DNA of 64,000 nt from the NCBI GenBank assembly GCA_041738755.1, contig JBGSPE010000005.1, forward strand, positions 79,872-143,871, in the 5' to 3' direction. This document shows positions 4,355 to 48,056 of this stretch, piece after piece. Under the pieces are notes generated by a model, which had not been told where the DNA came from, made no database searches, and saw nothing but the letters and a program-made list of their open reading frames with translations. Made by a program: the position numbers and the translations under genes. Position 1 is the stretch's first letter. Every line of letters begins with the position of its first letter. Origin of the DNA: Minisyncoccia bacterium. GTDB taxonomy: Bacteria; Patescibacteriota; Minisyncoccia; Phycocordibacterales; UBA918.

Positions 4355-4358
4355 TGAC

Positions 4359-12844: not shown

Positions 12845-13345
12845 ATGTCCTTTTTACAAAGACTAAAAAGTCGCGGAGTCAGAAGTGGGGAAGCCTCACT
12901 ACAGTCTGATGCAGAAGAAACTGCAGCAGACAAAGTTGCTCAGCTGCACGTTGATGTGTACCAAACAGATCAACTTATTGTTGTATATGCCCAGTCAGCT
13001 GGAGCAGACATGAACGATGTGCACGTTTCGATTGAAGGTGACGCAGACATTGTACTGATTGAGGGTAAGCGAATTCGACCCGAGTACATTGTTTTCCCTA
13101 AAAAAATCATCAAGGGTTCATTTGTTGCAAGCGAGTGCGTGTGGGGCGATTTTTATCGCCGGATTATTTTGCCTGAGAGTGTAAATATTGATAAAGCAGA
13201 AGCAAAAATAAAAAATGGAGTTTTAATACTTATCCTACCTTTATTGAAGTCAAGTGAAAAAGAAAAAGTAAAATTAAAAGTGATGGGAACACGACCGCAA
13301 GCACGATCTCAAGCGCAGGCACGACCCCAACCACGACGTTCTTAA
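12845..13345 (+). CDS. Hsp20/alpha-crystallin small heat-shock protein
   Basis: Alpha-crystallin-domain pattern LHVDVYQTDQ...IEG...ILPESVNIDKAEAKIKNGVLILILP, with a basic C-terminal tail. Confidence 0.7.
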   Translation: MSFLQRLKSRGVRSGEASLQSDAEETAADKVAQLHVDVYQTDQLIVVYAQSAGADMNDVHVSIEGDADIVLIEGKRIRPEYIVFPKKIIKGSFVASECVWGDFYRRIILPESVNIDKAEAKIKNGVLILILPLLKSSEKEKVKLKVMGTRPQARSQAQARPQPRRS

Positions 13346-14898: not shown

Positions 14899-14928
14899 AA
14901 CCACTAATTAATCCCCATAAAACAAGCG

Positions 14929-14960
14929 TATCGCGTAAGTCTTCAGTGACTTACGCGATA
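14929..14960 (+). terminator. 13-bp perfect stem hairpin (tatcgcgtaagtc / gacttacgcgata, loop ttcagt) after gene 13357-14898; terminator-like but lacks a clean T-run
   Basis: Read directly from the sequence. An AT-rich stretch with tataat and an AGAGG RBS follows, ahead of the GTG start at 15005. Confidence 0.45.
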
Positions 14961-15004
14961 TACTTATAATTGCCACTACTTATAGCTGGCTTAGAGGTTT
15001 TTCT

Positions 15005-18000
15005 GTGGAGCGACTCAAAAAGGTAATACAATCACTTGGAACTAAGGGGGTAATCGGACTAGTTCTGTTCGGGTGTTTTGTTGTATATGCTGCAACCGTA
15101 GACCGTACCGTCTACGTGAGTGAGAGAATGCTGTTGCTGCCAGGTTCCGCTACCTCTGCAGGTTTTGAAAATCCAGAACGGTCGCTCATACAAGACTTAG
15201 GCGACTATACACTTTTCCAAGATTTTAATGCTAACAATTCAGCTGCTCTTAGCGAAGAAATAATTTTTCCTCCAGCCCCAGAACCTTCAAATCAAAATAC
15301 TGATCCAGGACCAACAACAGGCGGAACACAAGGAGACGGTCAAGGAGAACCAGCGGGTCAAACTGAGGAGGGAGGATCAGTTACCCCAGAAGTATTACCT
15401 GAATCTGATGTTGAGGAGCAGCCAGAACCACAACCTGATTCAGAACCAACTGCTGAATCAAGCCCAGCTCCTATAAATGAGACGGAGGTAAGTGAGCCAG
15501 TAAGCTCATTATTCAATAACCCAATTCGTAATCAAGTCACGGGACAGTTTCCTTATGCACAAGAAGCGACACAAGAACCTGTTGTAGAAGAACCGGTATC
15601 AGAAGCCGTAGAGGATTTAGATGAAACTGCGTTGGGTAGCGAACGTGTTGAAACTGATACTGCCGTAAGTGAAGAATCTGTTTCAGAAATAGATGAAGAA
15701 ATTGTAAATCCTGAGCTTGAGTCAGTAACCGAGACACCAGAATCAATTAGCCCAAGCGATATTCTTCCAGAACCGGAAGTGACAACTGCCCCAGACGTAG
15801 TGGTATCTGAAGAACTACTAGAAGAAGCGTTAGTGGAGTCAGTTAGTCCACAGATTGAGTGTAGTTCACAAGTAAATTGTACTACGCACAGCATTACGTA
15901 CACAGACTTTAATATTCCAGAATTTGAACGAGGCACAGTCTTAAATGGAGTACAACTGCGCTTGTCTTTGGCAGCGCAAACAAAATCTCCAGAACAGGAC
16001 CAAATTCAGCGATTTGTTATCGAGTATTCATTTGATGGTGAGGTTACATGGAGCACCGCCTCAGTTATTGATATTGATGAAGAAATCTCCAACAGTATAA
16101 ATGGCGGCTTCTTTCTCGCCAATCTTCCCAATCCTCCAGTGGCAAATTCGCTTGCAGGCCTTGCCGTTCGTGTTTCATACCAAGGAGATATTACTGAGTT
16201 AAACGAGGCTTTTGTAGAAGCGGTATGGCTTGAACTTAACTCAGGACGATTTTATGAAGAAGGAGATCCATTTTTCAATACGGATACCATTGATTATGAG
16301 CGGAATTTAGAGTCACCAAAATTCCATTCATTACACACAGAAGGATTGGACATGTCATTGAATGAGCTTCCATCGTTTACGATGGATTATGATCCGCAAC
16401 AAAATTTTCTGCGACGTATATTTACTGGACTCTTTAGTGATAATACCTATGAGGTAGGGAGCATTGAATTAGTGGATAGTGCGGGTGTCCGAGTTGAGGT
16501 TCCTTTTGAAGTGGTGTACCACGACGACACAACCTGGACAGTTGAGATGATGAGGCAGCCACAAAAAATGCAGCCTGGTAAATATGAACTCCGTCTCACG
16601 ATAAATGAAAATGATGCTGAGTTTGTCGATGTGTTCGAATTCTACTGGGGTGTTTTGGCCGTAAATACAACCAAAAGCATGTACGCTCCAAACGAAGCCG
16701 TGGCATTGAATTTGGCCGCCTTGACGGATAAGGGTGACACTATTTGTGATGCCGAACTTGCTTTGAAAATTATTGATCCAGCAAATGAAATTTATGAAGT
16801 ACCGGTTCAACAATCGGGTTCATGTGGTCCAAATAATGTTACTGATATTTCTGACTATATAGCTGATTTTAGAAATACCGGTGAAGTTGGTGTATATCAG
16901 ATTTTGCTTGAGCATAAGAACCAGGCTGGTGAAGTAGTCCATAAGATAGCTGATTCTTTTGAAGTGCGTGACTATATTCCTTTTGATATTACGCGAACTG
17001 CTCCAACTCGAATTTACCCACCTGCGCCATATACAGTCACGCTTGCTATTAAAGCCAATCGAGCATTTACCGGAGACATTGTCGAGCGAGTTCCACGGGG
17101 GTTTGTCTTTGCGGACACCAGTGGTGCTGAGGTAACTACACTTGAAGAGGCAACTCTCTTGACTTGGAAAGATGTAGTGCTTGAAGAAGGTGATGAACTC
17201 ACGCTCTCGTATGTCTTTGATGCTCCAGATATTAGTCCGTATATGTACTTGCTTGGCCCACTTGATATGGATGGCTTTACAGAGTTACGTCAGTGGCAGA
17301 TTGCGTCTGATGCCATTTCGGCAGTGGCAGTTCTTTCAGCAACTCAGACTGAGTTAGGTACAAACCTTAACGATGCAACAGCAGGAGCGCTAATCTGGAG
17401 TACAAGTACCTTAGATGCATTTTATTTTTCACACTCTACCGGCACAACGCCGGAGCGATTATTTGTCGAAGTAGATGGAGATTATCTGGTGTCAGTAGCA
17501 CTACCTCTTGAACGAACTGATACTACTGATACTAGAACCCGTGTTGGATTTGAGGTGAGAGTTAACGGCGCTGTTATTCCACAAGCCATAAGTCGAAGTG
17601 GGTACATGAAGAATCAAATCAGTAACGGCAATCGACAAGGTGAATCATCATCAAACGGTAGTTTCTTACTGACAGGGTTATCAGAAGGAGATTATATCGA
17701 GGTCTATGCGCAGGGTCTTACGACAAGTTTTAATAATGTCATTGTTTCAGGTCAAGCAAGTTTATATGTTGAACACATTACACCAGCTACTGGAGTATTT
17801 GCAGCTACTGCTACCTCGACAACAAATTCTGCAAACCTAAACCAAGCGACTGCATTTCCGCTTCGTTGGACTGAAACACGACAAGATACGGGTTTTGTAC
17901 ACTCAGATACCATTAACCCAGAAAACATCATAATCTCTGAACCCGGTACATACCTGGTATATGCAAACGTACCGCTCTTCTCGACAGTAACGCAACACCG

Positions 18001-21000
18001 AAACGTTTTGGGTAGAGTCACCCTGGGAGGAGTACAGGTACCAAACGGTATATTTTCGCAAGGGTATCACAACGTAAGCAATAGTAATGACTTCAATGCC
18101 TCAATTCACTTCTCTGGTATTGTGGTAGCAACCACTACTGATCAGGTACTCACGATTACAACTGAACAAGAATCAAGTGCTGGAACTACCGTAATACCAA
18201 CTGGTTTTGAAGGTTCAATATACATCCAAAAGCTTCCAACTGATGACGTTATTGCTCTGCGGGGACAAGATCCAATAGGTGGTACCAACTGGAATGTTTC
18301 ACCGGCTCAAGCAATTGGCTGGAACACCCAAGATCAATATGATAGTACTACGTTCACGCACTCAACTGGGGTAAATAATGATCAAATTATTATTAATGAG
18401 GCAGGTGATTATGTTTTGGTATATAACGATGCGTTATTTACGACAACAGGTAACGCTGCAAACGTTATTACCGTTACTAAAAACGGTGTTGCGGTGGCCG
18501 GTGCCCAGACAAAAACACACCATATTTCAGCCGGTACTGGTCACAATGATTCATCCGGCTCACTTACGTTTACGCTTGAAGGTCTAGTACCAACAGATGT
18601 AATTCGAGTGACAACTATCCAAGAAGGAGCAAACGCAACGATAAACGATCGTGCCGATGCCAGCTTACTTATCTGGAAGAAACGAGAGCTTAACTTTAGA
18701 CCGGGTGAACCAACAATGTTCGATACACCGTTTGATAATATTCGGTTTGCCTCAACTACACCGTACTTTGATTTTGCAGCAACTGACCCTGACGGTACAT
18801 CGAATGTAGTATACGAATTTACTATTAGTACTACTTCAGACTTTAGTACATCGGTTACTCGAATATCCGATACAGATGCTGGATTCGTTAATACCGCATC
18901 TTCTACCGACGCGAGTCCGTTTACTGAAGGAGAGCGGATTAGATTCCAGCTACAACCTGGTGACGCCTTGCAAAATAATACTACTTACTATTGGCGAGTC
19001 CGAGCCAAAGACGTGACTGGTTCGGCCGAGTTTGGTGATTGGTCAACTACCCAAAGTTTAACGGTTGATGTAACGGTGGAAGTACCAAACTGGCATCAAA
19101 CTACTGACGCTCAACTTTTAAGTAATCAACTTACCGGTGTTGCGTCAGCGGAAGGTGATGGTGCTGTGGTTGATATTGTTGAAAATACAGAAGCAATACT
19201 TGTGTATGGTGAAAAGACTGACACGTTGTTAAAGTACCGATTCTGGGACGGTCTGGCTTGGACCGCTGAAACAAACGGTCCTGATCTTGGCGGTCAGATT
19301 TTTTGGGCGGAAACTTCAGCTGGTAACATTCGTGACGAGTATGTGGGAATTTTCTTGACGGCAGACGGTGATACAAACGCTCTTGTGTATAGTGCTTCAA
19401 GTTCAACCTGGGGAAGTCAAACTGAGTTTGAAACAGCTGTAAACACTCCAGCCCGTCGAGGAATCGCAGTAGCTCATGAAAGTGTTTCGGGACGAGCGAT
19501 TGCTGTGTCATGTAGTACGGGAACTAATCCAAACTACACAATCTGGGACGGTTCAAGCTGGTCAACTCCAGCTAGTATCTCCGTCGGGACGGCTAGTAAC
19601 TGCAACTGGTTAAAGTTAGTAGCGGACCCAGAGTCAGATGAAATGATTCTCGTCGTAAAAGGAGCCGCTAATAATTACGAAGCCGTAGTGTGGGACGGTA
19701 CTGCCTGGGGAAATAATAAAACTCTTGGCCGGGCGGTAGGAACCAACCTCAATACTGATGGAATGAGCGCGGTGTATGAAGCCTCGGGGGATCAGGCTTT
19801 GGTTGTTTCGTCTGACGCCAGTGATGCTGAATTTGTGTATAGTGCTTGGAATGGAGTCGAGTGGCTCATTAATGTTAATGTGCCAGTCACTGGTGATTTT
19901 GAGAATGGTCGGTTGGTCAGGGATGTTGGTACTGACAGAATTGGTTTGTGTATGGTTGATGATCAGTCAGATATAAATGCATTTATTTGGGATGGTACGG
20001 CCTGGGGGACTGAAACACAACTCGAACCCCTAACCGAGTCAGTACAAAGTCGGCCATTTGATTGTTTGTTTGAAACGGTACCAGGACGAGATGGTAATTT
20101 CATCGTAGCTTACTCTGATAGTGCGACTGACGAATATCAGTTTTTTGACACGACATGGTCTGGTCCGCTTGATATGTCCAATATGGAGGAGTTTTGGTAT
20201 CTCGAAACAGTTCGAACGGGTGACGGAACTTTATTGGCAGTAGGTATGGAAAATGTTGGAATCGACCCACTTCGAGCGAGTGAGTTTAATGGAACAAGTT
20301 GGTCACCAAGCACTCTCATTGAAGCTGATCCGGCTGAGACAAATGCTGATCCGCGAAGTGAATCATTTTCACTATCGGCAAAACGCTTTAGCTTCGCACA
20401 AGGAGAGTTGTTGACACAACCAATTGATTTTTCTTTTGTGCCGGGCCAACCATCGTGGGGAGATATGTTTTTTAACACAACTGAGCCAATCGGCACCAGT
20501 GTGTCAGTGCGAGTCAAATATTCCAATGTAGGGGTGTGTGATGCGTATATACCAAATGGCACACTTCCTGGGAATGACGTTGGCTTTACGGTAGAGGACG
20601 GTCCAATTGATCTTTCAGGGCTCAGCACTACAACCTATAATCAAATTTGTCTTGAAGCAACAATTAATCGTAGTGGTGATGTCTCAGCCGTCCTCAATGA
20701 TTGGACACTTACCTGGGTACGTGAACCAAAACTTATTCAAAATCAGTACCGGTGGTACGTCAATGGAAGTTTTTTAAGTCCGGTAGATCCTTGGCCATTT
20801 GGAGTGAATGATTTGGCAGAAAATACACCACTTGGAGCTGCTGAGGCAATTAATATCGAACAATCGATTCGCCTACGAATGTCCCTACAAGGACTTAATA
20901 TTGATTTACCAGCAGCAACTGAAACATTTAAACTTCAGTATGCAGAAGGCCTAACATGTTCGCCAACACTTAACTGGCAAGATGTGGGTGGTATCGGTAG

Positions 21001-33000: not shown

Positions 33001-36000
33001 AACAGTATTGGGTTCACCGCGACCTGCCTCCGTATTTGTGGCTGGTGGTAGTTCGGTAACGTATAGCAGTAGTAGTATCAGTGTCCAAGGAACATCGACC
33101 GCTACCACTACCATCCAAAACCAGGGGAGTGGCACATACGAATTATCACTTGAAGGAAATACAACAGCTACCTTGCGTTACGTCGCGCCTCGAAACCTGG
33201 CTGCAAGTGGTATTGAGTTCAGTGGTACCCCAACCATTGTCGATATTGCAAATGCTGATTTCTTTATTCAAACTAACAGTGCCTCAGCGCTCACTGTCGC
33301 TGGTTCAGTTATCAATGCTAATCCAGCCAAGAACCTTAATATCAACCGTTTTGAAGCAGCTGGCGGGGTGACTGGCGCAATCAACGTGACTGTCACTGGT
33401 TCGTCAGTGAGTTCATGGCGGTTTACCAATGAATACGGTAATCGAGCGGGTGAACTCTATGACGCTGACGCGGGAGATCCGGGTGAAATTGTATGGACCG
33501 ACTCAGCTGCTCTGATTACTATCTCCGGAAGTGTGTTTAGTGATGAGGGAAGTAGTGTATCAAGTGTTTGTGACGGCTCGACACCAAACATTCGAATTGT
33601 GGTGGCGGGAGTAACTTCAGCTTCAACCACATGTAATGGTAGTGGAAATTATTCATTCACGAGTGTTGGATTCAATGCCAACGATTCAATCATCGTCTAT
33701 ATTAATGGTGAGGCAGAAAAAGCCGCTACCGTTACCTACGAACCGATTTCAAATATCACTAATATGGACCTGTATGAAAATCGAGTGATTGTTCGACATG
33801 AAGGAGCTACTCCAATTGCGATTGAAGAATTGGCAGTGTATGACAGCAGTGATGATGGTGATATACCGTTTACTGCCGACACTGTAGGAAGTCCAGATAC
33901 ACTCGTGCTACCAGCAAATCGAAAGTTGCTCGTTTGGAACAATAAACAATTTACTCCAAATGGTAATGTCACCATAACTGGTGGAGGTGGAAGTGCTGAT
34001 TATGACGGTACACTAGAAGCTCGAGCGGGAGGTCAATTCATTGCTCAAAACAGCGAGACACATACCATTGGTGGAAGTCTTATCTTTGGCAGCGGCGCTG
34101 TATTTACCGGGGCCCAATCATCAGTCGTAATGACTACTGATGATGCAAGCCGAGTGATTGATGTAAACGGCGGTTCGTTCCACAATCTTTCAGTTACCGG
34201 TCCGGGTAGTCTAGCGGTGACAGATACAACACTAACGGTAAATAATAATTTCACGCAAACAAATGGTAGCCTAAGCTTCCCAACCGGAACAACAACTATT
34301 GGTAGCTCATTTATTGCCTCAGGTGGAGACTTTGATATCAATGGAAGTCCTCTGGTATTCACGAGTACGGTAACCGGGCGAACAGTCACGTTTGGTGATT
34401 CTGATGTAGCAAACGTAACCTTCGCTGGAGTTGGTGGTGCGTGGAATATCACTGATGTCAATGCTACTGCTACAGAGTCAGTTGTAATCAATGCTGGTGC
34501 GGTAACGCTTCCAAGTGGAACCCTCACCATTGGCGGTGACTTTAATAATGCCAGTGGAACTATTGCGCACAATACGAGTGAACTCGTCTTCACGAGTCCT
34601 AACCCACAAATACTGCGGGCCCGTGGCTCTGATTTACATAGCGTCAGGCAAGCTGGGGTTGGTGCACTAACGATGACTGATACCAATGCGACGCTACTCG
34701 GAAGTTTGATAATCTCAGCTGGTTCGGTCAATCTCGCAACGGGAACACTGGCAGTTGGAGGCTCACTCATCTCTGTTGGCGGTACGTTTGAAAGTGCCAC
34801 TGGCACGGTCTTGTTCAATGGTGTGACGAGCGGACTTACCATTAATCCTGGCCAAAGTGATTTCTACAATGTACAGATTGGTGCTCCAAGTGGTGGGTAT
34901 ACACTCTCAAGCGCTACTACCACGAACAACTTCACGTTGGCTTCGGTTAATAATTTTACGCTTAGCCCGACTAATGTCTTACGAGTTGAGGGAGTCTTTA
35001 CAAATACTGCAGTGGGCGCTAATACCACTTGGACTGGTTCGACGTTGGTACTTGGTTCGGGTACCTCATATAGTGTAAACACTCGAATTAGTACTGGTGA
35101 TTTCTATGAAAATCTTATCCTTGCTAATAATACCGACGTACGCTTCTGGTACTCACAAGCGACTACGACAACTGTTGCCTCAAGTGCATCACTCTATTCA
35201 CAAGACCATGCCAATGTAAACGGAGCACTCAATGTGTACGGAGATTTCGTTATTAGTACAACCACTGAGTACTGGAGTTACGCAACTGACTTTGATGGTA
35301 CACCGCTTGGTGGCTCACCTCGAAAAGTAACCGTACGAATTGCCGGCAATGCTACCACCACAATGCAAAGCGGTGGGCTACAGATTGTGGGTGGTAGTGG
35401 TAATACAACAGATATAAATAATCAAGGAAGTGGGCAATATAATTTCGTAGTTACTGGGGGAACCTTCAACGCCAATCAGTACAGCTTCGCTAATCTATCT
35501 CTCCAAGGTCTTCAATTTACCGGTCTCCCAACCATCACCGACCTATCCAATGGATATTATGAAATTGCCGCTGATACTGGTTCACTTATCACGCTGTCTT
35601 CAACGACGTTGAACGCTAATGCATCAAAGGTCTTCAATAATGTTGGATTCAATGCAGTTGGACCATTAACTGGCTTTAACGTAAACCTGGTCGGTGTAAC
35701 TGATAACGCCTGGAGGTTCACCAATGCGTACGGCAATATTGGCAATGAAGGATTTGACGTCGATGGTTTGGATGCCTGTGGTTCAATACGGTTTGATGAC
35801 AGTGCCTGTCTCTTGACTGAACAAACAAACTACCGCTGGCGCAATGATGATGGAGGTGCCGGAGTACCTGATAGCGAATGGTTTAATACAGACTGGGATC
35901 TTCGAAAGCGAGTGAGAATTACTAACCCAGTCAACCAGACCTATAGCAGCACCTCTGTGAAGATTGCGGTCGCGTATGAAAGTGACATGCTTTCAAACTT

Positions 36001-38095
36001 CAGTGACCTTCGCTTTACTGCTGGTGACGGCATTACCCCGATTCCATATTGGATTGAACGATTTACAGCCAGTACTGACGCTACCGTTTGGGTAAAGGTT
36101 CCAACCTTACCAGCTAATGGGCAAGCGGTCGTACACATGTATTACGGTAACGCTGCCGCCACAACTACTACCAGTAATGGTGCTGCGGTATTCAATGCGT
36201 TTGAAGATTTTGAACGGACGCCGCTTTCTGGCTACACCGGGGACACGGGACTATTCCAAACCGATACAGCGCCCGTGTTTGGCGGAACCTATGCCCTTGA
36301 GGCATCCAATAAGAACGGTAAGACAACCGATGGTATTTTCCGCTTTGACCGAACTGTTGCTCAAGGAGAGATTATTCGCTACATGCAGTACGTTGATATT
36401 GTTGCGGGTAGTGGTGATGAGGCGTGTACCTTGTTTGGTGTACAGTCACCCGGAACGACAAATGAAAACTACGCAGTGTGTCTTGAACAGTTTGGTACTG
36501 ACCGAATTGCACTCTCCAAAGATGTCGAAAATAATGACACCTCAGGAACCGTATTGGCTTCTAAAAACGTTACCTACAGTACTGGTTGGTACGAGGTTGA
36601 AATTGACTGGCTCACAAACGACACTATTAACGTGGCGCTCTATAACCCAGCGGGAGTTTTGACTGCAACCACTTCAGCTACTGATGCGTCATACACCTCA
36701 GGAGGAATCGGCTTTGCGTTCTGGTTCAATTACGGTGCTTGGGATAGTTACACCTCACGTGTGCGTACTGGACTTCCACCTGAAGTATTCATTGGTGCGC
36801 CACAAGGCAGAGGCGGTGCAACCTGGCGTTCAGCCCTTAATACTCCAGCTGGTGGCGTACCAGGTGAGACGTTGCGTCTGCGTATGGCGATTGAAAATTC
36901 AGGTCTTGAAGTGACGCAATCGTATCAACTTGAATATGCTCCGAAGGGCGCAGCTCCAAGTTGTGAAGCTGTCCTTCCGAGTGCCTACGAACCAGTTCCA
37001 AATCAAGCAAGTTGTGGAAGCTCTCCGGTCTGTATGCAGTCGAGTACACAGTTTGCAAGTGGCGACGCGACGACCGACTTACTCTTAGGAACCAACGGTG
37101 ACTTTGTGTCTGGTGAACTAATAGAAAGTCCAAATTCAATCACCAGCGCTTTGGTTGTTGATCAGTTCTTCTTTACTGAACTTGAGTATGCTGTAACGCC
37201 AACTATTAACGCCGCAGATGCCTATTGTTTCCGAGCTACCAACAACGGTACGCCACTTGACTTCTATAGCCGTATTCCAGAACTCGGCCTGCAGTTTGAT
37301 CCATTTGTTAATCCTGTCGACTTTAATAACGGAATGGATATCAATAATCTTACCCCTGGTACCACGACGAGAATTTACGCCTCGAGTACGGTGACAGACT
37401 TCAACGGCTTTACTGATTTGGTATCTGCTACCGCTACGGTATTTCGAACTGGAGTGGGAGCGATTTGTACACCTGATAATAATAATTGTTACGTTGAAAC
37501 TACTGATACCAGTTGTAGTTTTACTCAGTGTTCAGATAATAGCTGTGAGTTAGTCTGTGCCATTGATATCTTCTTCCACGCTGATCCAACTGATACCGGA
37601 ACATACCTAGGCGAAGAGTGGTTTGCCTTCTTGGAAGTAAGAGATGCTGCCGGTACGTTGGGCTTTAATGATAGTCAAAACGGGCTCCAGTTATTATCGG
37701 TTCGAGCAATTGATGTTGTTGGTTCAATTGATTACGGAGCCTTGGCAGTAAATGAAGATACCGGTGCCTTTAACCCATCAACCTCAATCATTAACCTCGG
37801 TAATGTACCTGTTAATATCGATGTACAAGGAACTGACTTAACTGATGGAGCGAGTTCGTTTATCCCGGCTGAACAACAGAAATTTGCGACCTCGACATTT
37901 AACTATTCACTCTGTGGTTCAAGTTGTGGCGTTGTTTCGGCTGATACACCAGTACCAATTGATGTTGACTTGATAAAGCCAACTGCTGTAACACCACCAA
38001 TCAGCGATGAGGTGTATTGGGGAATTGCCATTCCGGTCGGGACCAATAGTGTGGCTCACCAAGGAATTAACGTCTTTACCCCAATCAGTCCGTAG
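15005..38095 (+). CDS. Giant (7696-aa) multidomain cell-surface protein with a GTG start and an N-terminal signal anchor
   Basis: A single uninterrupted 23,091-nt ORF. An AGAGG RBS lies 8 nt upstream of the GTG. The N-terminus is acidic and PT/PE-rich. Modules include FN3-like domains (YYWRVRA motifs), two beta-propeller-like WDG-x-W arrays, a Gly-rich domain, three DUF2341+LamG/ConA-like modules, long beta-helix-like internal repeats and a Cys-rich C-terminal domain shared with the product of 42326. Confidence 0.85.
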   Translation: MERLKKVIQSLGTKGVIGLVLFGCFVVYAATVDRTVYVSERMLLLPGSATSAGFENPERSLIQDLGDYTLFQDFNANNSAALSEEIIFPPAPEPSNQNTDPGPTTGGTQGDGQGEPAGQTEEGGSVTPEVLPESDVEEQPEPQPDSEPTAESSPAPINETEVSEPVSSLFNNPIRNQVTGQFPYAQEATQEPVVEEPVSEAVEDLDETALGSERVETDTAVSEESVSEIDEEIVNPELESVTETPESISPSDILPEPEVTTAPDVVVSEELLEEALVESVSPQIECSSQVNCTTHSITYTDFNIPEFERGTVLNGVQLRLSLAAQTKSPEQDQIQRFVIEYSFDGEVTWSTASVIDIDEEISNSINGGFFLANLPNPPVANSLAGLAVRVSYQGDITELNEAFVEAVWLELNSGRFYEEGDPFFNTDTIDYERNLESPKFHSLHTEGLDMSLNELPSFTMDYDPQQNFLRRIFTGLFSDNTYEVGSIELVDSAGVRVEVPFEVVYHDDTTWTVEMMRQPQKMQPGKYELRLTINENDAEFVDVFEFYWGVLAVNTTKSMYAPNEAVALNLAALTDKGDTICDAELALKIIDPANEIYEVPVQQSGSCGPNNVTDISDYIADFRNTGEVGVYQILLEHKNQAGEVVHKIADSFEVRDYIPFDITRTAPTRIYPPAPYTVTLAIKANRAFTGDIVERVPRGFVFADTSGAEVTTLEEATLLTWKDVVLEEGDELTLSYVFDAPDISPYMYLLGPLDMDGFTELRQWQIASDAISAVAVLSATQTELGTNLNDATAGALIWSTSTLDAFYFSHSTGTTPERLFVEVDGDYLVSVALPLERTDTTDTRTRVGFEVRVNGAVIPQAISRSGYMKNQISNGNRQGESSSNGSFLLTGLSEGDYIEVYAQGLTTSFNNVIVSGQASLYVEHITPATGVFAATATSTTNSANLNQATAFPLRWTETRQDTGFVHSDTINPENIIISEPGTYLVYANVPLFSTVTQHRNVLGRVTLGGVQVPNGIFSQGYHNVSNSNDFNASIHFSGIVVATTTDQVLTITTEQESSAGTTVIPTGFEGSIYIQKLPTDDVIALRGQDPIGGTNWNVSPAQAIGWNTQDQYDSTTFTHSTGVNNDQIIINEAGDYVLVYNDALFTTTGNAANVITVTKNGVAVAGAQTKTHHISAGTGHNDSSGSLTFTLEGLVPTDVIRVTTIQEGANATINDRADASLLIWKKRELNFRPGEPTMFDTPFDNIRFASTTPYFDFAATDPDGTSNVVYEFTISTTSDFSTSVTRISDTDAGFVNTASSTDASPFTEGERIRFQLQPGDALQNNTTYYWRVRAKDVTGSAEFGDWSTTQSLTVDVTVEVPNWHQTTDAQLLSNQLTGVASAEGDGAVVDIVENTEAILVYGEKTDTLLKYRFWDGLAWTAETNGPDLGGQIFWAETSAGNIRDEYVGIFLTADGDTNALVYSASSSTWGSQTEFETAVNTPARRGIAVAHESVSGRAIAVSCSTGTNPNYTIWDGSSWSTPASISVGTASNCNWLKLVADPESDEMILVVKGAANNYEAVVWDGTAWGNNKTLGRAVGTNLNTDGMSAVYEASGDQALVVSSDASDAEFVYSAWNGVEWLINVNVPVTGDFENGRLVRDVGTDRIGLCMVDDQSDINAFIWDGTAWGTETQLEPLTESVQSRPFDCLFETVPGRDGNFIVAYSDSATDEYQFFDTTWSGPLDMSNMEEFWYLETVRTGDGTLLAVGMENVGIDPLRASEFNGTSWSPSTLIEADPAETNADPRSESFSLSAKRFSFAQGELLTQPIDFSFVPGQPSWGDMFFNTTEPIGTSVSVRVKYSNVGVCDAYIPNGTLPGNDVGFTVEDGPIDLSGLSTTTYNQICLEATINRSGDVSAVLNDWTLTWVREPKLIQNQYRWYVNGSFLSPVDPWPFGVNDLAENTPLGAAEAINIEQSIRLRMSLQGLNIDLPAATETFKLQYAEGLTCSPTLNWQDVGGIGSTTAVWRGFENSVVGSDWYNAAWARRVEITIPDAQVSEDLTDFPVYVDMADLPVGFFIAAKSDGSDIRITEADGITELPYDLVSYNSGTQTGELHFKADLASTTDNEFYIYYGNSGASAYAPSATYGSQNVWNNNFNLRYAMDDSPVSASPQFKDSTANGNDAITRAGSGMTSGDVVAGKIGQAINHDGNDGAFFENVLTYTGTYTISMWWRTQNIADGNGFAVASADGGANEKIGPWNTPSNGRSFIRVLPGGASDTTINHPADGTWTHVVITRDASNKVDIHFNGTANRLYGDVAQSGNSNWHNFGGDPTQGFEGDIDELRFSPVRRTNGWIATEYANQLSPIGFYDVSAEELISDGRNLPSTLLSLSDYAETYEEQNPTRENQNLIVVGNDAEWDFVLQNNLGLPNTNYCFRMVYDDGALLSTYDRYPRLITNAPPLEPDLFAPFDNEQLASTSPWFEFAVADQLDDDVSYEIVVDNNPDFSSPEITRESTADFSQFENLSAPAERGIYTPGQIIRFIPSVALANNTTYYWRVRARDDNGSGAYGPWSDGDSFTVNTATIITTWFQTTQAQFDTNDLQNTVATVSDDVRIAPTLTSGTTTGTAIRFADVDTGNAWGELLFAQDEPSGDIKYSIEYLISGNEWALIPDTDLAGNSTGFDSSGVSLANLSPITYHTIRIRASFSGTDSQPRLQSWSITWGKRIETPTVQSPFDNAKVNTTVPRLLFSTTDPQADNLEYEVQVSQSSDFGVAVTYLSAVDSGFTNQVTPADLTPFTSGEQIEYEFQTSLTDGVTYWYRVRARDPLPGENAYSDWSNARSFTVDTTATVSTWHQTTGDQFATGQTENAEFLTTEVGVTSVIRGAMVAYGESTSLNPRYRLWDGEAWSDPQTAESIDALVEWAEVKAGVTRNEYALGTLGNDGDVNVQIFNVNSGTWGNQVELSTTIANTGYRSMDITYETISGELMAVSCEGDDAVYRLWDGSNWTASTTISLTKAAACEYIELSSDPTSNEIIAVFRHLNTGSPDYEVLVWNGSSWGNSITLGDYSEAENEGIAIEYEASGDQAVVVITNGNNPSFFYNTWNGSAWSGTLTQALQNDFESGVLKKNPLSDEMALCYIDDESDLGTVFWDGAAWDTFLEHEQTANSKDGGRPVSCEFETTPGREGYLMIPYSDTVATNYTVYATSSYSGELPIGTITDTWTTQTVRTADGLILGVFLQDEGLAPADRYEFAYWNGTDWLGQETLSTVPSVTGTPFHDSIGVAAQIFPSVTNASILSTAINFEDGGSPRFEDISFSDATPGASSIEYRVYYESTPGVFSLISDSALPGNSVGFSAGTVDISTLDTDIYSVLKLEATLLCDSGDCPTLEEWTIRWSEGVSVSGLAFAYDQTTPLTEGTVAIAVNGVLQVGKTAEISASTGVQEVAFTSAGSSTWAVPAGVTDLTVKAWGAGGGGGGGGIADSGAAGGGGGFVTGTVPVTPLENLTVFVGGGGQAGLSGSPAGAAGGGGFSGVFRTSTPLTVAGGGGGGGAGSGGISYAGVGTACTVSGASCTPTIPGGTAEHDVLVAVVHSRTDTAHTCTTNCAGWTEFSSQAGGNGRLSVWYLRRGAGAPANPTFAGPATESYTARIWSFRGVARSGNPFDVISANTTQAATNPFVGASLTSTLDNVMSVFVGGTLDDNTWGPAGGTCTVPTGVDANFYAANLNGSDNSIFLCYNNHPTNTAGPLGVPTMTQVANATDVGRWFTFALRPDYTAQQAAGLGGPGGGLIGITASSSGAAAGGSGGTQSGGGTGSGGASSGSSLVGGSGGSGTSGGVGGVGGINGGGAGGSGAGATAQAGGGGAGAGYFGGGGGASANSNAVSGAGGGGGSSYVVTGASATSTQSGNGVTPGGAADPRYLLGSAIGGAGGATSSDGVAGTNGRVVVSWIGSTTPGVWSIPNINVEAGDVITVFVTGADGAREAVAVTQYNGAGDVTGMQLSERTLTLGSADNPILSNPEIGLYEFDDNEDVFFGVNAGNELQLCEDTTCLDARLRILSGTTYEPQTNGRVVNFENTGTFSPGTTTLRVSGSWKQNGIFTTAASTVIFTATTSSYTLENATSSFSFFNVTFGETSSVATWNITKPLQALGTFAIDRGTLNRGTSTITVGNNLRVGNGGVVVGIGTTTFTGGGSYVWTDLNASSTNIGNVLIDGTAKTITLGSAVLAQSITIGADDTLNASGSNFPITVLGSWVNNNSFIPQGGTVIFAGTSTTAINRGTSAFNNLSFTGVGGSWSFTTPTLALNGTLTIATGTVTLPTGTTTIGRSFTNSGGTFLHNNGEVRMTSTVAGQTITQRADSFFNAFYDLTFSGSGAWAFSETAATTTRNMSIQSGTVTFPSGTLTVGEDFLTTGTGAFAHNNGEVIFLVQGPDTASVNNSSFNNVRVRNGVASATWYNDAWLYRVPVTINESQIDGDLTNFPVYVNLDDFGTHFFTNVKANGGDIRVTQGDGVTEVPRELVSINPGTGVGELHFRANSVSSSTNSTYYIYYGNAAANDYAVTDPFGARNVWSNGYALVTHLNDLTTSTILNSAGTINGTKTSANNPLFVTTSFIYGGQDFSADAIQFNGDIIASESQYSVSLWFNPDNLGGGNAEEQSFGESLYAVSVAAPYQWLTTGGTGFPGELRLCAFENTATDCTPTSGASLVSGNWYYASVNAIGGGNTTVRINGVERLSYTNQNKGVVSDNFTIGDLRAGRNINYDGRIDEVRVANVTRTNAWQDAEYRNHATTTNFYTAGAVQTSGARTFTTVNTNILGNLILEDGGDSVFPTGVLAVGGSFDNNASFDANGGTVRFNSTAGAETIAAGSSPFATLEFNNAAGTFTVTEHATATVAINLVNATSFTLQSGQSLTTLGTFTNAIVNANTTWTGATVVFGGNNDITTSAKTYTGDSYGTIRTLGTTTARFWNSTSTVYDTVASSSIYSQDHAGVDGDLFIFGDYRRSAGSEYWSHATDFDGANIGGTPRQVDVRFESGSTFVLTNASLFMQGATSASTTVAAQSGDYTITAANATINASLFEVAQTNSSGFSLTSSTTLAQFTNGYFNVTPGRSGITIDATTVNQNPGGQYFGINFATTTAGAATNVTLTGTPASFVWFRNGSGNLYGEAFDAGDGNPGSIRFDDSSFNITISGTIYSDDGVTPMGAAICDNVTPVVAVAVDGAVVQTGTCNSANGTYSIPNINYIGDADIAVYLDTNRPGTSTIALRSQTSGVGTTNGTTGQFSVNKPASVTNGDYLVVIIGKDDTPGITPPAGWTGYTQAGTTGNVRHTGIWYKRVTDATSEPASYTFTGDVNEVFSYYSAALIGVSPSNPEDVSFAGRWQQVQNSVAPSAPSLTTQTTNSYVFSAWYVDNDNAVTMPGAPWTTRTANIVSGENNNLSISSQVVAAPGATGGVAITGVGGTAETNMAQFAFRRDVATTSSVRAVTVTKTPSANITNFDLYQSRVIVRHEDVSPMTIADMTKYQFSNDSDVQFVASSSQLTVLPNNELFVWNNKTFAPGGDVTLTGNGNSNGFEGTLQIGSGAAFVAAGSQTHTLAGRFVMRNTGSFTAASSTVIFNASTTGKSITASTTVAFNELQFNGTGGGWNITAPLTVAQNINLAAGTVTGTSNITIQNGSFFGNGVLSLGTGTTTINQTNTLGGTTPWTFANLVLGNGSSIGTTTPASTATTTILGRLTISPAHFLNAQNSSFDLAGTGVVLQESGTLLEGTGTIRYSGNGATVANTTYYNLLLEAGAGTPTYVAAGPGILVLNNLTVGGVANSTFNLSTNNASLDVNGNVTIASNGTLIASASAPLTAGGSWQNNGTFTASNGTVTFDTATSATVNPGNSSFANLNLAALGAIAITNNATATANITIASTTSFTQNSGTTLAIGNRLINQTDGSNTTWTGSTLSLYGGGQYEVNTKTGVDNYDGTLVVSGTAQPRFWNSNFGTVQNSGGGSIYSMNHAGNSGELYIYGNYNNTTYADHWSYATDFDGTVLGSPRPASVFVAGGSSVTYSSSSISVQGTSTATTTIQNQGSGTYELSLEGNTTATLRYVAPRNLAASGIEFSGTPTIVDIANADFFIQTNSASALTVAGSVINANPAKNLNINRFEAAGGVTGAINVTVTGSSVSSWRFTNEYGNRAGELYDADAGDPGEIVWTDSAALITISGSVFSDEGSSVSSVCDGSTPNIRIVVAGVTSASTTCNGSGNYSFTSVGFNANDSIIVYINGEAEKAATVTYEPISNITNMDLYENRVIVRHEGATPIAIEELAVYDSSDDGDIPFTADTVGSPDTLVLPANRKLLVWNNKQFTPNGNVTITGGGGSADYDGTLEARAGGQFIAQNSETHTIGGSLIFGSGAVFTGAQSSVVMTTDDASRVIDVNGGSFHNLSVTGPGSLAVTDTTLTVNNNFTQTNGSLSFPTGTTTIGSSFIASGGDFDINGSPLVFTSTVTGRTVTFGDSDVANVTFAGVGGAWNITDVNATATESVVINAGAVTLPSGTLTIGGDFNNASGTIAHNTSELVFTSPNPQILRARGSDLHSVRQAGVGALTMTDTNATLLGSLIISAGSVNLATGTLAVGGSLISVGGTFESATGTVLFNGVTSGLTINPGQSDFYNVQIGAPSGGYTLSSATTTNNFTLASVNNFTLSPTNVLRVEGVFTNTAVGANTTWTGSTLVLGSGTSYSVNTRISTGDFYENLILANNTDVRFWYSQATTTTVASSASLYSQDHANVNGALNVYGDFVISTTTEYWSYATDFDGTPLGGSPRKVTVRIAGNATTTMQSGGLQIVGGSGNTTDINNQGSGQYNFVVTGGTFNANQYSFANLSLQGLQFTGLPTITDLSNGYYEIAADTGSLITLSSTTLNANASKVFNNVGFNAVGPLTGFNVNLVGVTDNAWRFTNAYGNIGNEGFDVDGLDACGSIRFDDSACLLTEQTNYRWRNDDGGAGVPDSEWFNTDWDLRKRVRITNPVNQTYSSTSVKIAVAYESDMLSNFSDLRFTAGDGITPIPYWIERFTASTDATVWVKVPTLPANGQAVVHMYYGNAAATTTTSNGAAVFNAFEDFERTPLSGYTGDTGLFQTDTAPVFGGTYALEASNKNGKTTDGIFRFDRTVAQGEIIRYMQYVDIVAGSGDEACTLFGVQSPGTTNENYAVCLEQFGTDRIALSKDVENNDTSGTVLASKNVTYSTGWYEVEIDWLTNDTINVALYNPAGVLTATTSATDASYTSGGIGFAFWFNYGAWDSYTSRVRTGLPPEVFIGAPQGRGGATWRSALNTPAGGVPGETLRLRMAIENSGLEVTQSYQLEYAPKGAAPSCEAVLPSAYEPVPNQASCGSSPVCMQSSTQFASGDATTDLLLGTNGDFVSGELIESPNSITSALVVDQFFFTELEYAVTPTINAADAYCFRATNNGTPLDFYSRIPELGLQFDPFVNPVDFNNGMDINNLTPGTTTRIYASSTVTDFNGFTDLVSATATVFRTGVGAICTPDNNNCYVETTDTSCSFTQCSDNSCELVCAIDIFFHADPTDTGTYLGEEWFAFLEVRDAAGTLGFNDSQNGLQLLSVRAIDVVGSIDYGALAVNEDTGAFNPSTSIINLGNVPVNIDVQGTDLTDGASSFIPAEQQKFATSTFNYSLCGSSCGVVSADTPVPIDVDLIKPTAVTPPISDEVYWGIAIPVGTNSVAHQGINVFTPISP
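21049..22045 (+). other. DUF2341-like plus LamG/ConA-like module 1 within the giant CDS
   Basis: WYNAAWARRVEITIP...DLTDFPVYVDMADL...EFYIYYGNSGA, then a LamG-like stretch ending DELRFSPVRRTNGWIATEYANQ. Confidence 0.55.
25327..26775 (+). other. Glycine-rich domain (Gly_rich-like, PF12810-type) within the giant CDS
   Basis: AWGAGGGGGGGGIADSGAAGGGGGFVTGTVPV ... NLTVFVGGGGQAG ... GRVVVSWIG; Gly runs alternate with short beta segments. Confidence 0.5.
28275..29295 (+). other. DUF2341-like plus LamG-like module 2 within the giant CDS
   Basis: WYNDAWLYRVPVTINESQIDGDLTNFPVYVNLDDF ... TYYIYYGNAAANDYA ... DEVRVANVTRTNAWQDAEY. Confidence 0.55.
29290..35800 (+). repeat. At least three diverged long internal coding repeats (beta-helix-like GT/NT-rich units)
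   Basis: Three motif sets recur in order in units at roughly 29290-30460, 32230-33500 and 34540-35800. They are RFWNS/RFWYS, YWS(H/Y)ATDFDG and W(F/R)(R/F)(N/T)...YG(N/E)...D(A/V)(G/D)...PG(S/E)I(R/V)(F/W)(D/T)DS. A fourth partial copy begins near 27150. Confidence 0.6.
35876..36775 (+). other. DUF2341-like plus ConA/LamG-like module 3 within the giant CDS
   Basis: EWFNTDWDLRKRVRITNP ... SNFSDLRFTAGDGITPIPYWIERF ... VVHMYYGNAAA, followed by a lectin-like domain. Confidence 0.5.
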
Positions 38096-41011: not shown

Positions 41012-41021
41012 TGATTAGTAT

Positions 41022-44206: not shown

Positions 44207-44239
44207 AAGAACATATATTAGGACACATAAATAGTCGAC

Positions 44240-44278
44240 AATAACCACTGTTATCCAGCAGTGGTTATTGATTTTTTA
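44240..44278 (+). terminator. Intrinsic terminator: 11-bp stem (aataaccactg / cagtggttatt), 8-nt loop, then gatttttt
   Basis: Read directly from the sequence, immediately after the stop at 44206. Confidence 0.8.
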
Positions 44279-44298
44279 GACTAAGTTACGGATAATTA

Positions 44299-45264: not shown

Positions 45265-45267
45265 TCT

Positions 45268-48022: not shown

Positions 48023-48056
48023 CGAATATTGGCTCTAAGCTTGGAGTTAAAAGACA

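Follow-up and report, generated by a model that had tools for sequence, protein, structure and literature searches.

The window analysed here (64,000 nucleotides from a Minisyncoccia bacterium) holds an open reading frame of some 23 kb, and the locus raises two questions: whether so long a frame is one gene, and what its product does for the cell. Patescibacteria account for a large share of bacterial diversity and most of them appear to be dependent on other cells; many Paceibacteria, at the same time, may not be episymbionts. To our knowledge, the mechanism by which Patescibacteria outside the Saccharibacteria recognize and hold their partners is not known.

The reading frame and its start

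14928..14961, + strand: 14-bp perfect hairpin, terminator-like (dG -36 kcal/mol, z -5.8)
14993..15007, + strand: AGAGG (14993-14997), 7-nt spacer and GTG start codon (15005-15007)
15005..38095, + strand: giant gene, 7,696 codons and stop, covered by homologs over its whole length

The earlier note, made from the sequence alone, described one uninterrupted frame opening with GTG, and this description holds. The 7,696 codons contain zero internal stops, and since ~5% of random triplets are stops, an open frame of this length is impossible by chance. A single real gene is borne out by the relatives, in which the giant frames are open, colinear and full-length; the minus-strand ORFs inside the gene, already dismissed as shadows, contain stops in the homologous DNA of relatives. 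The GTG start is supported by the N-termini of homologs, which share a layout of basic residues, hydrophobic residues and 'YA(T/S)xDRTVY'. The AGAGG claimed as a ribosome-binding site is present, but it is weak evidence for such a site because SD-like motifs precede only ~5 of the 27 gene starts in the window. The hairpin stands in the intergenic stretch after the cohesin gene, ahead of the giant gene, and is followed by TATAAT at 14965-14970, as read directly from the sequence.

An artefact or pseudogene, arising by chimeric assembly or by the fusion of several genes through sequencing error, is extremely unlikely. Such an origin would fit four relatives (L001-L004) that are annotated as two to four genes, and a Gly-rich segment that is nearly unique to this sequence. 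However, family members as a rule have colinear giant ORFs, and the break positions differ between the split relatives and resemble indel errors (in one case at a C-run, in another as a local double frameshift), with homology running on across each break. The Gly-rich insert is in frame between the two halves of a recognizable domain, and it includes a sub-domain homologous to aa 5230-5447, a segment found in other family members as well. Mis-assembly at internal repeats, the hazard named in the earlier note, was examined as well. The repeats share 25-42% identity as protein and at most 82% identity over less than 80 nt as DNA, and no long or near-identical DNA repeats were found in the giant gene or the window; given this divergence at both levels, collapse is not a realistic risk. 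A role of the gene as target of a diversity-generating retroelement was rejected for the same lack of long similar DNA repeats in gene and window.

A widespread family in Patescibacteria

The giant belongs to a widespread Patescibacteria family that has already been noticed and is uncharacterized. Relatives of its last 1,197 aa occur in at least 204 GTDB species genomes, all of them Patescibacteria, the best GTDB match to the C-terminus standing at 61%. In 75 of 80 loci the homologous frame runs without a stop up to the limit of the fetched DNA, and in 56 of these it spans at least 4,500 codons. Across shared modules the identity is 36-51% (30 homologs of 5,310-7,696 aa). Placing the product among the largest bacterial proteins, as the earlier note did, is an overstatement: up to 85,804 aa are predicted elsewhere (bioRxiv 10.1101/2023.11.21.568195), 149 Patescibacteria proteins longer than 4,000 aa are found at NCBI (PMC11809585), and the family itself includes at least 24 full-length homologs of 5,310-7,696 aa.

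Giant DUF2341/FhaB-domain proteins of Patescibacteria were noted by Dutkiewicz et al. 2024 (PMC11809585), and large beta-sheet repeat proteins of OD1/Parcubacteria were described by Nelson & Stegen 2015, who read them as adhesins (PMC4508563). Our protein has in common with these the phylum, a length above 4,000 aa, DUF2341, beta-rich repeats, an inferred role in adhesion or host interaction and evidence of domain reshuffling, and differs from them by the lack of an FhaB-type domain. Colinear homology, neighbourhood and DUF2341 scores place it in the patescibacterial giant DUF2341 orthologous group. Neither publication reports a function for those proteins, and neither contains the defined scaffold, the conserved neighbourhood and the specific C-terminal module that are resolved here.

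Domain architecture

15044..15100, + strand: only hydrophobic segment, aa ~14-32 (Kyte-Doolittle scan; layout conserved in homologs)
15272..15874, + strand: acidic Pro/Glu/Ser/Thr-rich linker, aa 90-290
15875..17317, + strand: conserved N-terminal beta domains, aa 291-771, including a weak MG2-like Ig domain
17318..18667, + strand: three tandem ~155-aa TNF/C1q-like jelly-roll domains, aa 772-1221, variable cassette
18668..19162, + strand: FN3/Ig-like domain 1, aa 1222-1386 (Ig_Rha78A_N)
19163..20404, + strand: predicted eight-bladed beta-propeller 1, aa 1387-1800, lectin-like, variable cassette
21026..22054, + strand: DUF2341 + LamG module 1, aa 2008-2350 (Laminin_G_3 46 bits)
22304-22804 and 23090-23560: FN3/Ig-like domains, copies 2 and 3 (Ig_Rha78A_N)
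23561..24808, + strand: predicted eight-bladed beta-propeller 2, aa 2853-3268 (37% identical to propeller 1)
25265..26779, + strand: glycine-rich domain, aa 3421-3925 (Gly_rich_2)
26867..35809, + strand: threefold A-B-C-D super-repeat, aa 3955-5447, 5448-6238 and 6239-6935
28253-29350, + strand: DUF2341-LamG module 2, within super-repeat copy 1
35810..36766, + strand: DUF2341 module 3, aa 6936-7059, then ConA/LamG-like jelly roll, aa 7060-7254

The product (7,696 aa, ~810 kDa, pI 4.2) is supported as an acidic, all-beta, extracellular modular protein. Its extracellular location is indicated by the N-terminal position of the sole hydrophobic segment, by paired and conserved Cys residues (49 Cys in total) and by neighbours that are secreted proteins. 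Most of the domains listed in the earlier note were called correctly, but the TNF/C1q-like domains, the variability of the cassettes and the sharing of the C-terminal module had been missed. The N-terminal signal anchor of that list does correspond to the hydrophobic segment, which may act either as a signal anchor or as a cleavable Sec signal. A lipoprotein was rejected: Cys24 stands in an LFGC context, yet it is not conserved in homologs. The acidic PE/PT-rich stalk is evident from the composition of aa 90-290 (50 D+E versus 2 K+R, 26 Pro). The beta domains at aa 291-771 are conserved in most full-length homologs; their MG2 match is weak (E 0.04), and homologs also match MG2. The FN3-like domains number three, with Ig_Rha78A_N scores of 20-38 bits, at or near the Pfam cut-off.

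The TNF/C1q-like domains were recognized by self-similarity and by a Pfam TNF score of 34.3 bits (cut-off 23 bits), and homologs match the Pfam families TNF and BclA_C. The triple is present in ~7 of 30 long homologs. Jelly rolls on a surface filament are shared with trimeric tips of the BclA/C1q/TNF-like type, as in the Bacillus exosporium nap protein BclA, whereas those of the giant are three in tandem, internal rather than terminal, and have no collagen-like stalk. Possibly the triple forms a pseudo-trimer within a single chain.

Of the two propellers claimed from the sequence, one copy was confirmed by an AF2 model (pLDDT 85.6, pTM 0.89) with eight W[DN]GxxW blades, and the second is recognized by its identity to the first; both are predicted to be eight-bladed and lectin-like. 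The top Foldseek matches of the model are the PLL/PHL lectin propellers (E 3e-13 and ~1e-12; TM 0.6-0.7 on target length), with which it shares Trp-rich repeated blades (Photorhabdus lectins, PDB 5c9o, 5mxe, 6rgr, 8q81). The PLL/PHL propellers, in contrast, have seven blades, with defined pockets for fucose or O-methyl sugars between them, and are free ~40-kDa lectins, whereas the propeller described here is embedded in a giant chain; at 12-15% identity the likeness is one of fold only, with no sequence-level match, and sequence and profile searches of the propeller against PDB gave no match.

All three DUF2341 units exceed the Pfam cut-off of 23.4 bits (29.2, 25.7 and 83.9 bits). The claim of three DUF2341+LamG modules thus stands for DUF2341, while the third LamG domain is supported by structure only, its jelly roll having no sequence similarity to modules 1 and 2. 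Assignment of these units to the LamG/ConA-like lectin superfamily follows from the jelly-roll fold or a Pfam Laminin_G_3 match. The ConA-like fold matches include CBM66, legume lectins, phage receptor-binding proteins and the lectin domains of staphylococcal adhesins (SraP, Aap); unlike these, the units of the giant are preceded by DUF2341. Sequence identity of the propellers and jelly rolls to lectins is only 9-15%, and such likeness of predicted folds is no proof of sugar binding.

The same fold matches include GH16, GH43 and levanase-associated domains, and on this ground the giant could be read as a polysaccharide- or cell-wall-degrading, predation-related protein in which unassigned or ConA-like modules are partly catalytic. 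A GH18 protein and a CAP-domain protein encoded upstream in the window would agree with this reading, as would the precedent of the Omnitrophota giants implicated in the digestion of prey walls (West-Roberts et al. 2023, bioRxiv 10.1101/2023.11.21.568195). We consider it improbable. Pfam and NCBIfam searches detected no glycoside hydrolase, lyase, peptidase, other catalytic or toxin family anywhere in the giant, and the jelly roll following the third DUF2341 has no GH16-type E-x-D-x-x-E motif when the sequence is read. The Omnitrophota giants also come from ultrasmall, host-dependent bacteria, and likewise have domains revealed mainly by structure prediction, attachment and carbohydrate modules, and dockerin-type proteins nearby. 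However, they exceed 30,000 aa and have many TM regions, a divergent SecA-DEAD domain and T2SS loci, none of which applies to the present protein, in which one hydrophobic segment and no SecA match were found.

The Gly-rich domain of the earlier note was confirmed by a Gly_rich_2 match of 33 bits, above the cut-off. The domain interrupts a loop of 'D0', a small beta-sandwich (aa 3385-3954), and itself holds a nested insert of ~230 aa that resembles aa 5230-5447. Only partial homologs were found for it, carrying PF21722 or PF12810, and none of the 30 long homologs in the comparison has it.

The zone of ~3,000 aa previously taken for beta-helix repeats is partly solenoid-like, but it is really a threefold super-repeat of four module types, the first copy of which also carries an inserted domain (30692-31345) besides DUF2341-LamG module 2. 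Module B has a period of ~75-80 aa with a solenoid-like strand pattern, and a ~20-aa periodicity is also seen. In the AF2 model the DSSP pattern of aa 6500-6620 is solenoid-like at pLDDT >90, a pattern that was taken for aa 6500-6909. No Pfam Beta_helix, PATR or PMP matches were obtained in the giant, and fold searches, which were dominated by other domains, gave no match for the super-repeat modules. Altogether ~45% of the protein has no fold assignment, namely the N-terminal domains, the X domains, modules A, C and D, the inserted domains and Ct1-3; sequence and profile searches of the whole protein against PDB and a search against NCBIfam also gave no match.

A conserved scaffold with interchangeable cassettes

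Comparison with the relatives shows that a conserved scaffold carries interchangeable cassettes of carbohydrate-binding type. The scaffold is composed of the N-terminal domains, the FN3/Ig spacers, the A-B-C-D super-repeat, a DUF2341 + ConA-like unit and the Cys-stabilized C-terminal module. The two propellers, the three TNF/C1q-like jelly rolls, the two further DUF2341-LamG units and the unusual Gly-rich domain make up the cassettes. Relatives keep both ends of the giant and vary in the middle; the C-terminal ~2,250 aa are found in essentially all of them.

The C-terminal module and the gene neighbourhood

36767..38092, + strand: Cys-containing C-terminal region, Cys conserved
aa 7255-7431, + strand: Ct1 sandwich, first part of the C-terminal region 36767..38092
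37298-38092, + strand: Ct2-Ct3 module, aa 7432-7696
10864-12774: dockerin protein, before the Hsp20 and cohesin genes
12845-13345: Hsp20, before the cohesin gene
13357..14898, + strand: cohesin-domain secreted protein, upstream, syntenic in L001 and L002
38105-39631, + strand: FN3 secreted protein, starting 9 nt past the stop codon of the giant gene
39689-41011, + strand: ABC ATPase
41022-42236, + strand: MacB/FtsX-type permease
42326..46371, + strand: block starting with a 626-aa protein (C-terminal module at 43289-44182, aa 322-619)
44299-45264, + strand: 321-aa membrane-anchored protein
45268-46371, + strand: dockerin protein, downstream
49367-51145: further cohesin protein

The Cys-rich C-terminal domain of the earlier note is well founded, as 12 of the 49 Cys residues of the giant fall within its last 377 aa and are conserved in homologs. 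The region is represented by 1,214 cluster representatives, and the ~265-aa C-terminal module occurs in more than 800 protein clusters with lengths of 170-7,700 aa, almost always at the extreme C-terminus (121 of 139 carriers). The Ct2-Ct3 module has no Pfam or PDB counterpart, and searches of the last 1,197 aa against PDB by sequence and profile found no match. One carrier is encoded close by: the last ~300 aa of the 626-aa neighbour are homologous to the module of the giant (hhalign 99.5%, E 3e-22; BLASTP E 4e-22).

The order of the FN3 protein, ABC ATPase and permease genes downstream of the giant is conserved in 72-77 of 84 loci, and the genes for the 626-aa, 321-aa and dockerin proteins are retained in 57-65 of 84. 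In loci L085 and L086, small proteins that carry the C-terminal module are embedded in this same cassette. The MacB-type ABC transporter, conserved beside the giant, is absent around these small carriers; a functional link to it was therefore rejected, and its adjacency to the giant may be incidental.

The nearby ABC transporter, the large size and beta-rich nature of the protein and the FhaB-type domains of other giant Patescibacteria proteins (PMC11809585) could all suggest a filament that delivers toxins or effectors, of the FhaB/CDI, RTX or polymorphic-toxin type. This reading is largely refuted and highly improbable, as no TPS/FhaB domain, RTX nonapeptide, C-terminal toxin domain or immunity-like gene was found, the C-terminus is a conserved module of hundreds of proteins rather than a polymorphic tip, and the ABC system is of the MacB/Lol/FtsX type and not a T1SS exporter. 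Several established architectures were rejected along with it: a T1SS adhesin of the RTX/BAP type such as LapA, SiiE or MpIBP (no GGxGxDxU motif, and the MacB/Lol/FtsX type of the adjacent ABC system); an FhaB/TpsA filament or autotransporter (no Haemagg_act/TPS or beta-barrel translocator Pfam match in any segment); an LPXTG/sortase-anchored protein of the MSCRAMM type (no LPXTG near the C-terminus, and the sole hydrophobic segment is N-terminal); and a scaffoldin or dockerin subunit (no cohesin or dockerin in the giant by Pfam or by HMMs made from the dockerins and cohesins encoded in the window).

WxL clusters of Firmicutes combine proteins having a C-terminal WxL domain with DUF916/WxLIP membrane proteins. 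The present module resembles that arrangement in being near-always C-terminal, in ending with 'YWGIxxP' and in being encoded beside membrane-anchored E-set-like proteins. The likeness goes no further than resemblance: WxL identity was rejected by the lack of a Pfam WxL match in the giant, the 626-aa protein and 20 other carriers, and the 321-aa neighbour has no WxLIP match, while true WxLIP_PGBD matches occur elsewhere in the window.

The C-terminal module, common to many other proteins and genomically tied to cohesin and dockerin proteins, probably serves an interaction that its carriers share, for example docking to the cell surface or into a surface complex, rather than target-specific binding. 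A bolder proposal, which we advance only tentatively and think doubtful as it stands, is that the module is an undescribed, Patescibacteria-wide sorting or docking domain that plugs diverse passengers into a common cell-surface assembly.

Rather than an adhesin for a foreign surface, the giant could be part of the structure of the envelope of its own cell, whether as surface coat, as fibrillar or S-layer-like scaffold, or as backbone of a cohesin-dockerin surface assembly; its lectin-type modules would then bind the wall polymers of the cell itself. Many Paceibacteria lineages keep the locus together with its gene order, the C-terminal ~2,250 aa are nearly universal among relatives, the C-terminal module recurs in many secreted proteins and is found together with cohesin and dockerin genes, and a single gene takes up ~2% of a genome of ~1 Mb (size taken from relatives). 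These facts make an envelope role the most serious of the alternatives, though an unlikely one. The giant itself contains no SLH, cohesin, dockerin or known wall-binding domain; lectin cassettes that come and go between lineages are easier to reconcile with changing external targets than with a wall of its own that stays the same; and coat proteins would usually be small and abundant rather than of 810 kDa.

Proposed function

A putative multivalent glycan-binding adhesin is the best-supported function. An adhesin or host-attachment role, as proposed from the sequence, is plausible in view of many lectin-type modules and of the lack of any detectable catalytic, toxin or known anchoring domain. 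Related evidence comes from DUF2341 proteins, which have been proposed as pilus-tip adhesins (PMC4858521), and from the lectin-like, dockerin and FN3 envelope proteins that are essential for the epibiotic growth of a cultured Saccharibacterium (PMC10633639). With moderate confidence, we regard the locus as a genuine single gene of a Patescibacteria bacterium (class Paceibacteria/Parcubacteria, near Kaiserbacteria) for a probably Sec-exported surface protein, with a scaffold and cassettes, that serves as a putative glycan- or envelope-binding attachment fibre. The protein would be exported via Sec through its single N-terminal hydrophobic segment and reach the cell surface, where it may form a long multivalent fibre that binds glycans or cell envelopes. 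The fibre would give the ultrasmall cell a hold on a host cell or a polysaccharide matrix, and the gain and loss of cassettes between lineages would retune its specificity.

Conclusions

This work provides a module map of the whole giant protein. Several deposited genomes split the giant gene through apparent indel errors, which is a warning for the use of such annotations. Occupying ~2% of the genome and kept intact in many lineages, the giant is likely central to the interaction of these bacteria with their surroundings. The lectin-type cassettes swapped on the conserved scaffold are candidate determinants of specificity, and the shared C-terminal module together with its gene cassette is a candidate surface-display system. 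If the docking proposal is true, its passengers would range from 300-aa proteins to the 810-kDa giant, and the co-encoded ~320-aa membrane protein and the cohesin- and dockerin-bearing proteins would be parts of the assembly, which would be for the CPR what T9SS-CTD, WxL or cellulosome display is elsewhere. In that arrangement the C-terminus would secure the giant, and the variable lectin cassettes would face outward.

Genomic locus and reading frame

The giant protein is the product of one real, conserved gene. The earlier note had described an uninterrupted GTG-start ORF of 23 kb, and the plus strand indeed contains a single frame at 15005..38095 with 7,696 codons and no internal stop. The proposed AGAGG ribosome-binding site is present (14993-14997, with a 7-nt spacer to the GTG), but it is weak evidence for ribosome binding, since SD-like motifs precede only ~5 of the 27 gene starts in the window. 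Upstream of it lie a terminator-like perfect 14-bp hairpin (14928-14961; dG -36 kcal/mol, z -5.8) and, between hairpin and AGAGG, a TATAAT box (14965-14970), and the gene probably has its own promoter 3' of the terminator-like structure. The start position is independently supported by homologs, whose N-termini share the same layout of a basic stretch, ~17 hydrophobic residues and then 'YA(T/S)xDRTVY'. The following gene starts 9 nt after the stop. TATACT or TATAAT boxes are found 7-12 nt 5' of many other gene starts in the window (e.g. 6522, 12845, 39689 and 48343); together with the rarity of SD motifs, such boxes before many ATGs suggest that mRNAs of this organism are leaderless or have very short leaders.

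Conservation in Patescibacteria

Homologs were found in Patescibacteria only; their labels are Minisyncoccia, Paceibacterota, Kaiserbacteria, Nomurabacteria, Adlerbacteria and Lloydbacteria. When each GTDB species was scanned through a single genome, 204 genomes proved to encode a protein related to the final 1,197 aa (top identity 61%). In 75 of 80 loci, the ORF carrying this region runs without a stop as far as the fetched DNA extends upstream, and 56 of them have at least 4,500 open codons. The last 442 aa, searched against 1.84 billion cluster representatives, retrieved at least 24 homologs of 5,310-7,696 aa, matched at their extreme C-terminus. In four syntenic relatives the gene is annotated in pieces.

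Annotated pieces of the giant gene in syntenic relatives
L001: two, 1,813 + 5,191 aa
L002: two, 1,632 + 5,310 aa
L003 (JAWKSP010000002.1): four, 2,998 + 2,498 + 60 + 983 aa
L004 (Ca. Kaiserbacteria CP064968.1, complete genome; 9938-13000): three, 5,626 + 994 + 467 aa

The break positions differ among these loci, and past each break homology resumes in another frame. One break lies at a C-run, another is a local, compensating double frameshift within ~60 nt, and a third is a short deletion of a length not divisible by three. The splits look like sequencing or assembly indels, or recent lesions, and do not reflect an ancestral multi-gene state; in deposited relatives such breaks are probably assembly errors that conceal the true size of the gene. 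That the giant itself is an artefact is extremely improbable. Collapse of its internal repeats, checked at the sequence level, is unlikely because they have diverged both in protein (25-42% identity) and in DNA (82% identity at most, in stretches shorter than 80 nt). Within the gene lie five further ORFs on the minus strand and an off-frame one on the plus strand. They are open in only 0-8 of up to 81 relatives; since the homologous DNA of nearly all relatives contains stops there, these are shadow ORFs, as had been claimed for the minus-strand ones.

Module architecture

The giant is an all-beta modular protein of about 810 kDa (pI 4.16) with an N-terminal hydrophobic signal or anchor, several lectin-type folds and 49 Cys, mostly as close pairs, which are conserved. 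Its module map was compared with 30 homologs of >=5,300 aa and 84 fetched loci.

Modules of the giant protein (aa), with occurrence of cassettes among the 30 long homologs; counts were derived from BLAST hits by a colinear-chain heuristic and are approximate at repeats
~14-32: hydrophobic segment, the sole one in the giant
90-290: acidic P/E/S/T linker, 50 D+E vs 2 K+R
291-771: N-terminal beta domains; weak MG2-like Ig match, recurring in homologs
772-1221: three tandem TNF/C1q-like domains, ~155 aa each; Pfam TNF 34.3 bits vs a 23-bit cut-off; triple in ~7/30
1222-1386, 2434-2600, 2696-2852: three FN3/Ig-like domains
1387-1800: beta-propeller 1; 5/30
2853-3268: beta-propeller 2; 10/30
1807-1907, 2605-2701, 3261-3385: X, an unassigned ~100-aa domain in three copies
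2008-2350: DUF2341 module 1, Laminin_G_3 at 46 bits; DUF2341-LamG 1 in 10/30
3421-3925 (window 25265-26779): glycine-rich domain, Gly_rich_2 match; 0/30
3955-6935: threefold super-repeat of four module types, A-B-C-D; C1/D1 in ~15/30
4417-4782: DUF2341 module 2, LamG by C-terminal motif match only; DUF2341-LamG 2 in 12/30
5230-5447 (window 30692-31345): insert after module D1; 3/30
6936-7059: DUF2341 module 3, then domain 7060-7254 lacking sequence similarity to its counterparts in modules 1 and 2
7255-7696: C-terminus, made of three units resembling beta-sandwiches; contains 12 Cys, which homologs conserve

This map agrees with the earlier note on the two propeller arrays, the Gly-rich domain and the Cys-rich C-terminus, and adds the three TNF/C1q-like domains that it had omitted; homologs match TNF and BclA_C. 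An AF2 model of propeller 1 from a 10-sequence alignment (pLDDT 85.6, pTM 0.89) has eight four-stranded blades bearing W[DN]GxxW; its top PDB matches are the Photorhabdus PLL/PHL lectin propellers (E ~1e-12 to 1e-13, TM 0.6-0.7), followed by fungal fucose lectins. Of the three suggested DUF2341+LamG modules, all DUF2341 domains score above the Pfam cut-off and are mutually homologous by hhalign; for the LamG part, module 1 matches Laminin_G_3 and module 2 a LamG-type C-terminal motif. The 'beta-helix' zone proved to be the A-B-C-D super-repeat, for which no fold match was obtained. Module B, with periodicities of ~75-80 and ~20 aa and, in the model, a run of short, evenly spaced strands (pLDDT >90), is consistent with a beta-solenoid. 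Modules C and D have the long strands typical of sandwiches.

The Gly-rich domain is a domain within a domain: it occupies a loop of a small sandwich (3385-3420 + 3926-3954, compared with 5108-5229 and 6125-6238). Nested in it is an insert of ~230 aa related to the 5230-5447 insert (BLASTP E 1e-5); neither insert has a Pfam match. The Gly-rich region, used as a query, gave no more than partial matches, all to proteins with PF21722 or PF12810, among them a Ca. Nomurabacteria DUF2341 + LamG protein.

Variable cassettes ride on a conserved scaffold. The N-terminal domains, the FN3-2/X2/FN3-3/X3 block, A1, B1 and everything from aa 5448 to the end occur in nearly all relatives. The nearest architecture, that of homolog P0153 (7,083 aa, 50% identity), matches that of the giant except that the Gly-rich domain and the 5230-5447 insert are missing.

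C-terminal module and gene neighborhood

The C-terminal module (the final ~265 aa, 7432-7696) has matches in 1,214 cluster representatives when E <= 1e-3 is required, and in 838 with E <= 1e-10. Among the best hits, which range from 172 to 7,696 aa, it ends within 15 residues of the C-terminus in 121 of 139 carriers. No Pfam or PDB counterpart was found, including when 22 carriers were scanned singly.

Genes around the giant in the window
4302-4787: UmuD-like (Peptidase_S24); its true start is probably 3' of the listed TTG, which overlaps the gene before it
6522-7778: UmuC/DinB-like (IMS), forming a translesion polymerase pair with 4302-4787; such a polymerase gene also lies 5' of the giant locus in L001
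8096-14898: partial paralogous set 5' of the giant, comprising a 358-aa protein (43% identical to the 46865-48022 product), a WxLIP_PGBD-like TM protein (9298-10383), a dockerin protein (10864-12774), Hsp20 and a cohesin protein (13357-14898)
39689-42236: ABC pair of generic MacB/Lol/FtsX type; the 440-aa ATPase is unusually long, and its C-terminal half is unassigned
42326-44206: 626-aa protein, four genes 3' of the giant, ending in the C-terminal module (hhalign 99.5%, E 3e-22; BLASTP E 4e-22)
54360-60512: second large ORF, 2,050 aa, without Pfam or NCBIfam matches; shares two Ct1-like sandwiches (Ct1 being a C-terminal unit) and an X1/linker-like stretch with the giant; C-terminus '...NIVYIAVPVF' resembles the products at 8096 ('TLTYIATPTF') and 46865 ('TLTYVATPVF')
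60520-62767: WxLIP_PGBD-like TM proteins, following the 2,050-aa ORF

The 3' order of giant, FN3 protein, ABC ATPase, MacB/FtsX permease, 626-aa, 321-aa and dockerin proteins is kept in 57-77 of 84 loci, and the 5' order of dockerin, Hsp20 and cohesin in L001 and L002. Between loci the ABC pair shares ~80% identity, compared with ~50% for the giant; it is far better conserved than the genes around it and invariably adjoins the giant locus. Two small carriers of the module in other loci, L085 (8001-15419) and L086 (8001-15153), lie in a cassette resembling window 42326-51145: module protein(s), a ~310-320-aa homolog of the 321-aa protein (signal and C-terminal TM), a dockerin protein, a ~350-aa homolog of the 352-aa protein (cohesin-like N-terminus and C-terminal TM) and a cohesin protein. 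This cassette recurs in unrelated contigs with its order unchanged. The position of these small carriers ties the module to cohesin/dockerin surface-protein cassettes. No ABC transporter was found in the L085 and L086 cassettes, and its adjacency to the giant may be incidental. That the module serves surface display or docking throughout the phylum is a tentative and rather doubtful proposal.

Proposed role and implications

The giant belongs to a group of orthologous giant surface proteins in Patescibacteria, named 'DUF2341 domain-containing protein' or 'hypothetical protein' in databases and noted in the literature as an uncharacterized class. The earlier note had placed it among the largest bacterial proteins; its 7,696 aa make it large without being exceptional, as proteins as long as 85,804 aa have been predicted (bioRxiv 10.1101/2023.11.21.568195) and NCBI contains 149 Patescibacteria proteins >4,000 aa (PMC11809585). 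It lacks the hallmarks of LPXTG and RTX/T1SS adhesins, TPS filaments and autotransporters, scaffoldins, WxL proteins and Omnitrophota giants.

The note's interpretation as a whole is partly supported. We propose that the giant would be exported Sec-dependently and displayed on the surface as a fiber on the order of 100 nm (a rough figure from typical domain sizes), where it may multivalently bind glycans of host cells or matrices. Earlier readings point the same way, both for the large beta-rich proteins of OD1, taken as adhesins (PMC4508563), and for the giant Patescibacteria proteins with DUF2341/FhaB (PMC11809585). A pilus-tip adhesin role was also proposed for DUF2341 proteins (PMC4858521), and a cultured Saccharibacterium cannot grow epibiotically without its envelope proteins of the lectin-like, dockerin and FN3 kinds (PMC10633639). 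Among the alternatives, an envelope or scaffold role is unlikely, a degradative role considerably less probable, and toxin delivery very improbable; searches for catalytic, toxin, LPXTG, RTX, TPS, SLH, cohesin and dockerin elements in the giant found none. Possibly new to specialists are the logic of the cassettes, the insertion of the Gly-rich domain into another domain, and a C-terminal module that is uncatalogued and comes with a cohesin/dockerin gene cassette. For an adhesin of this kind, exchange of cassettes would retune its specificity.
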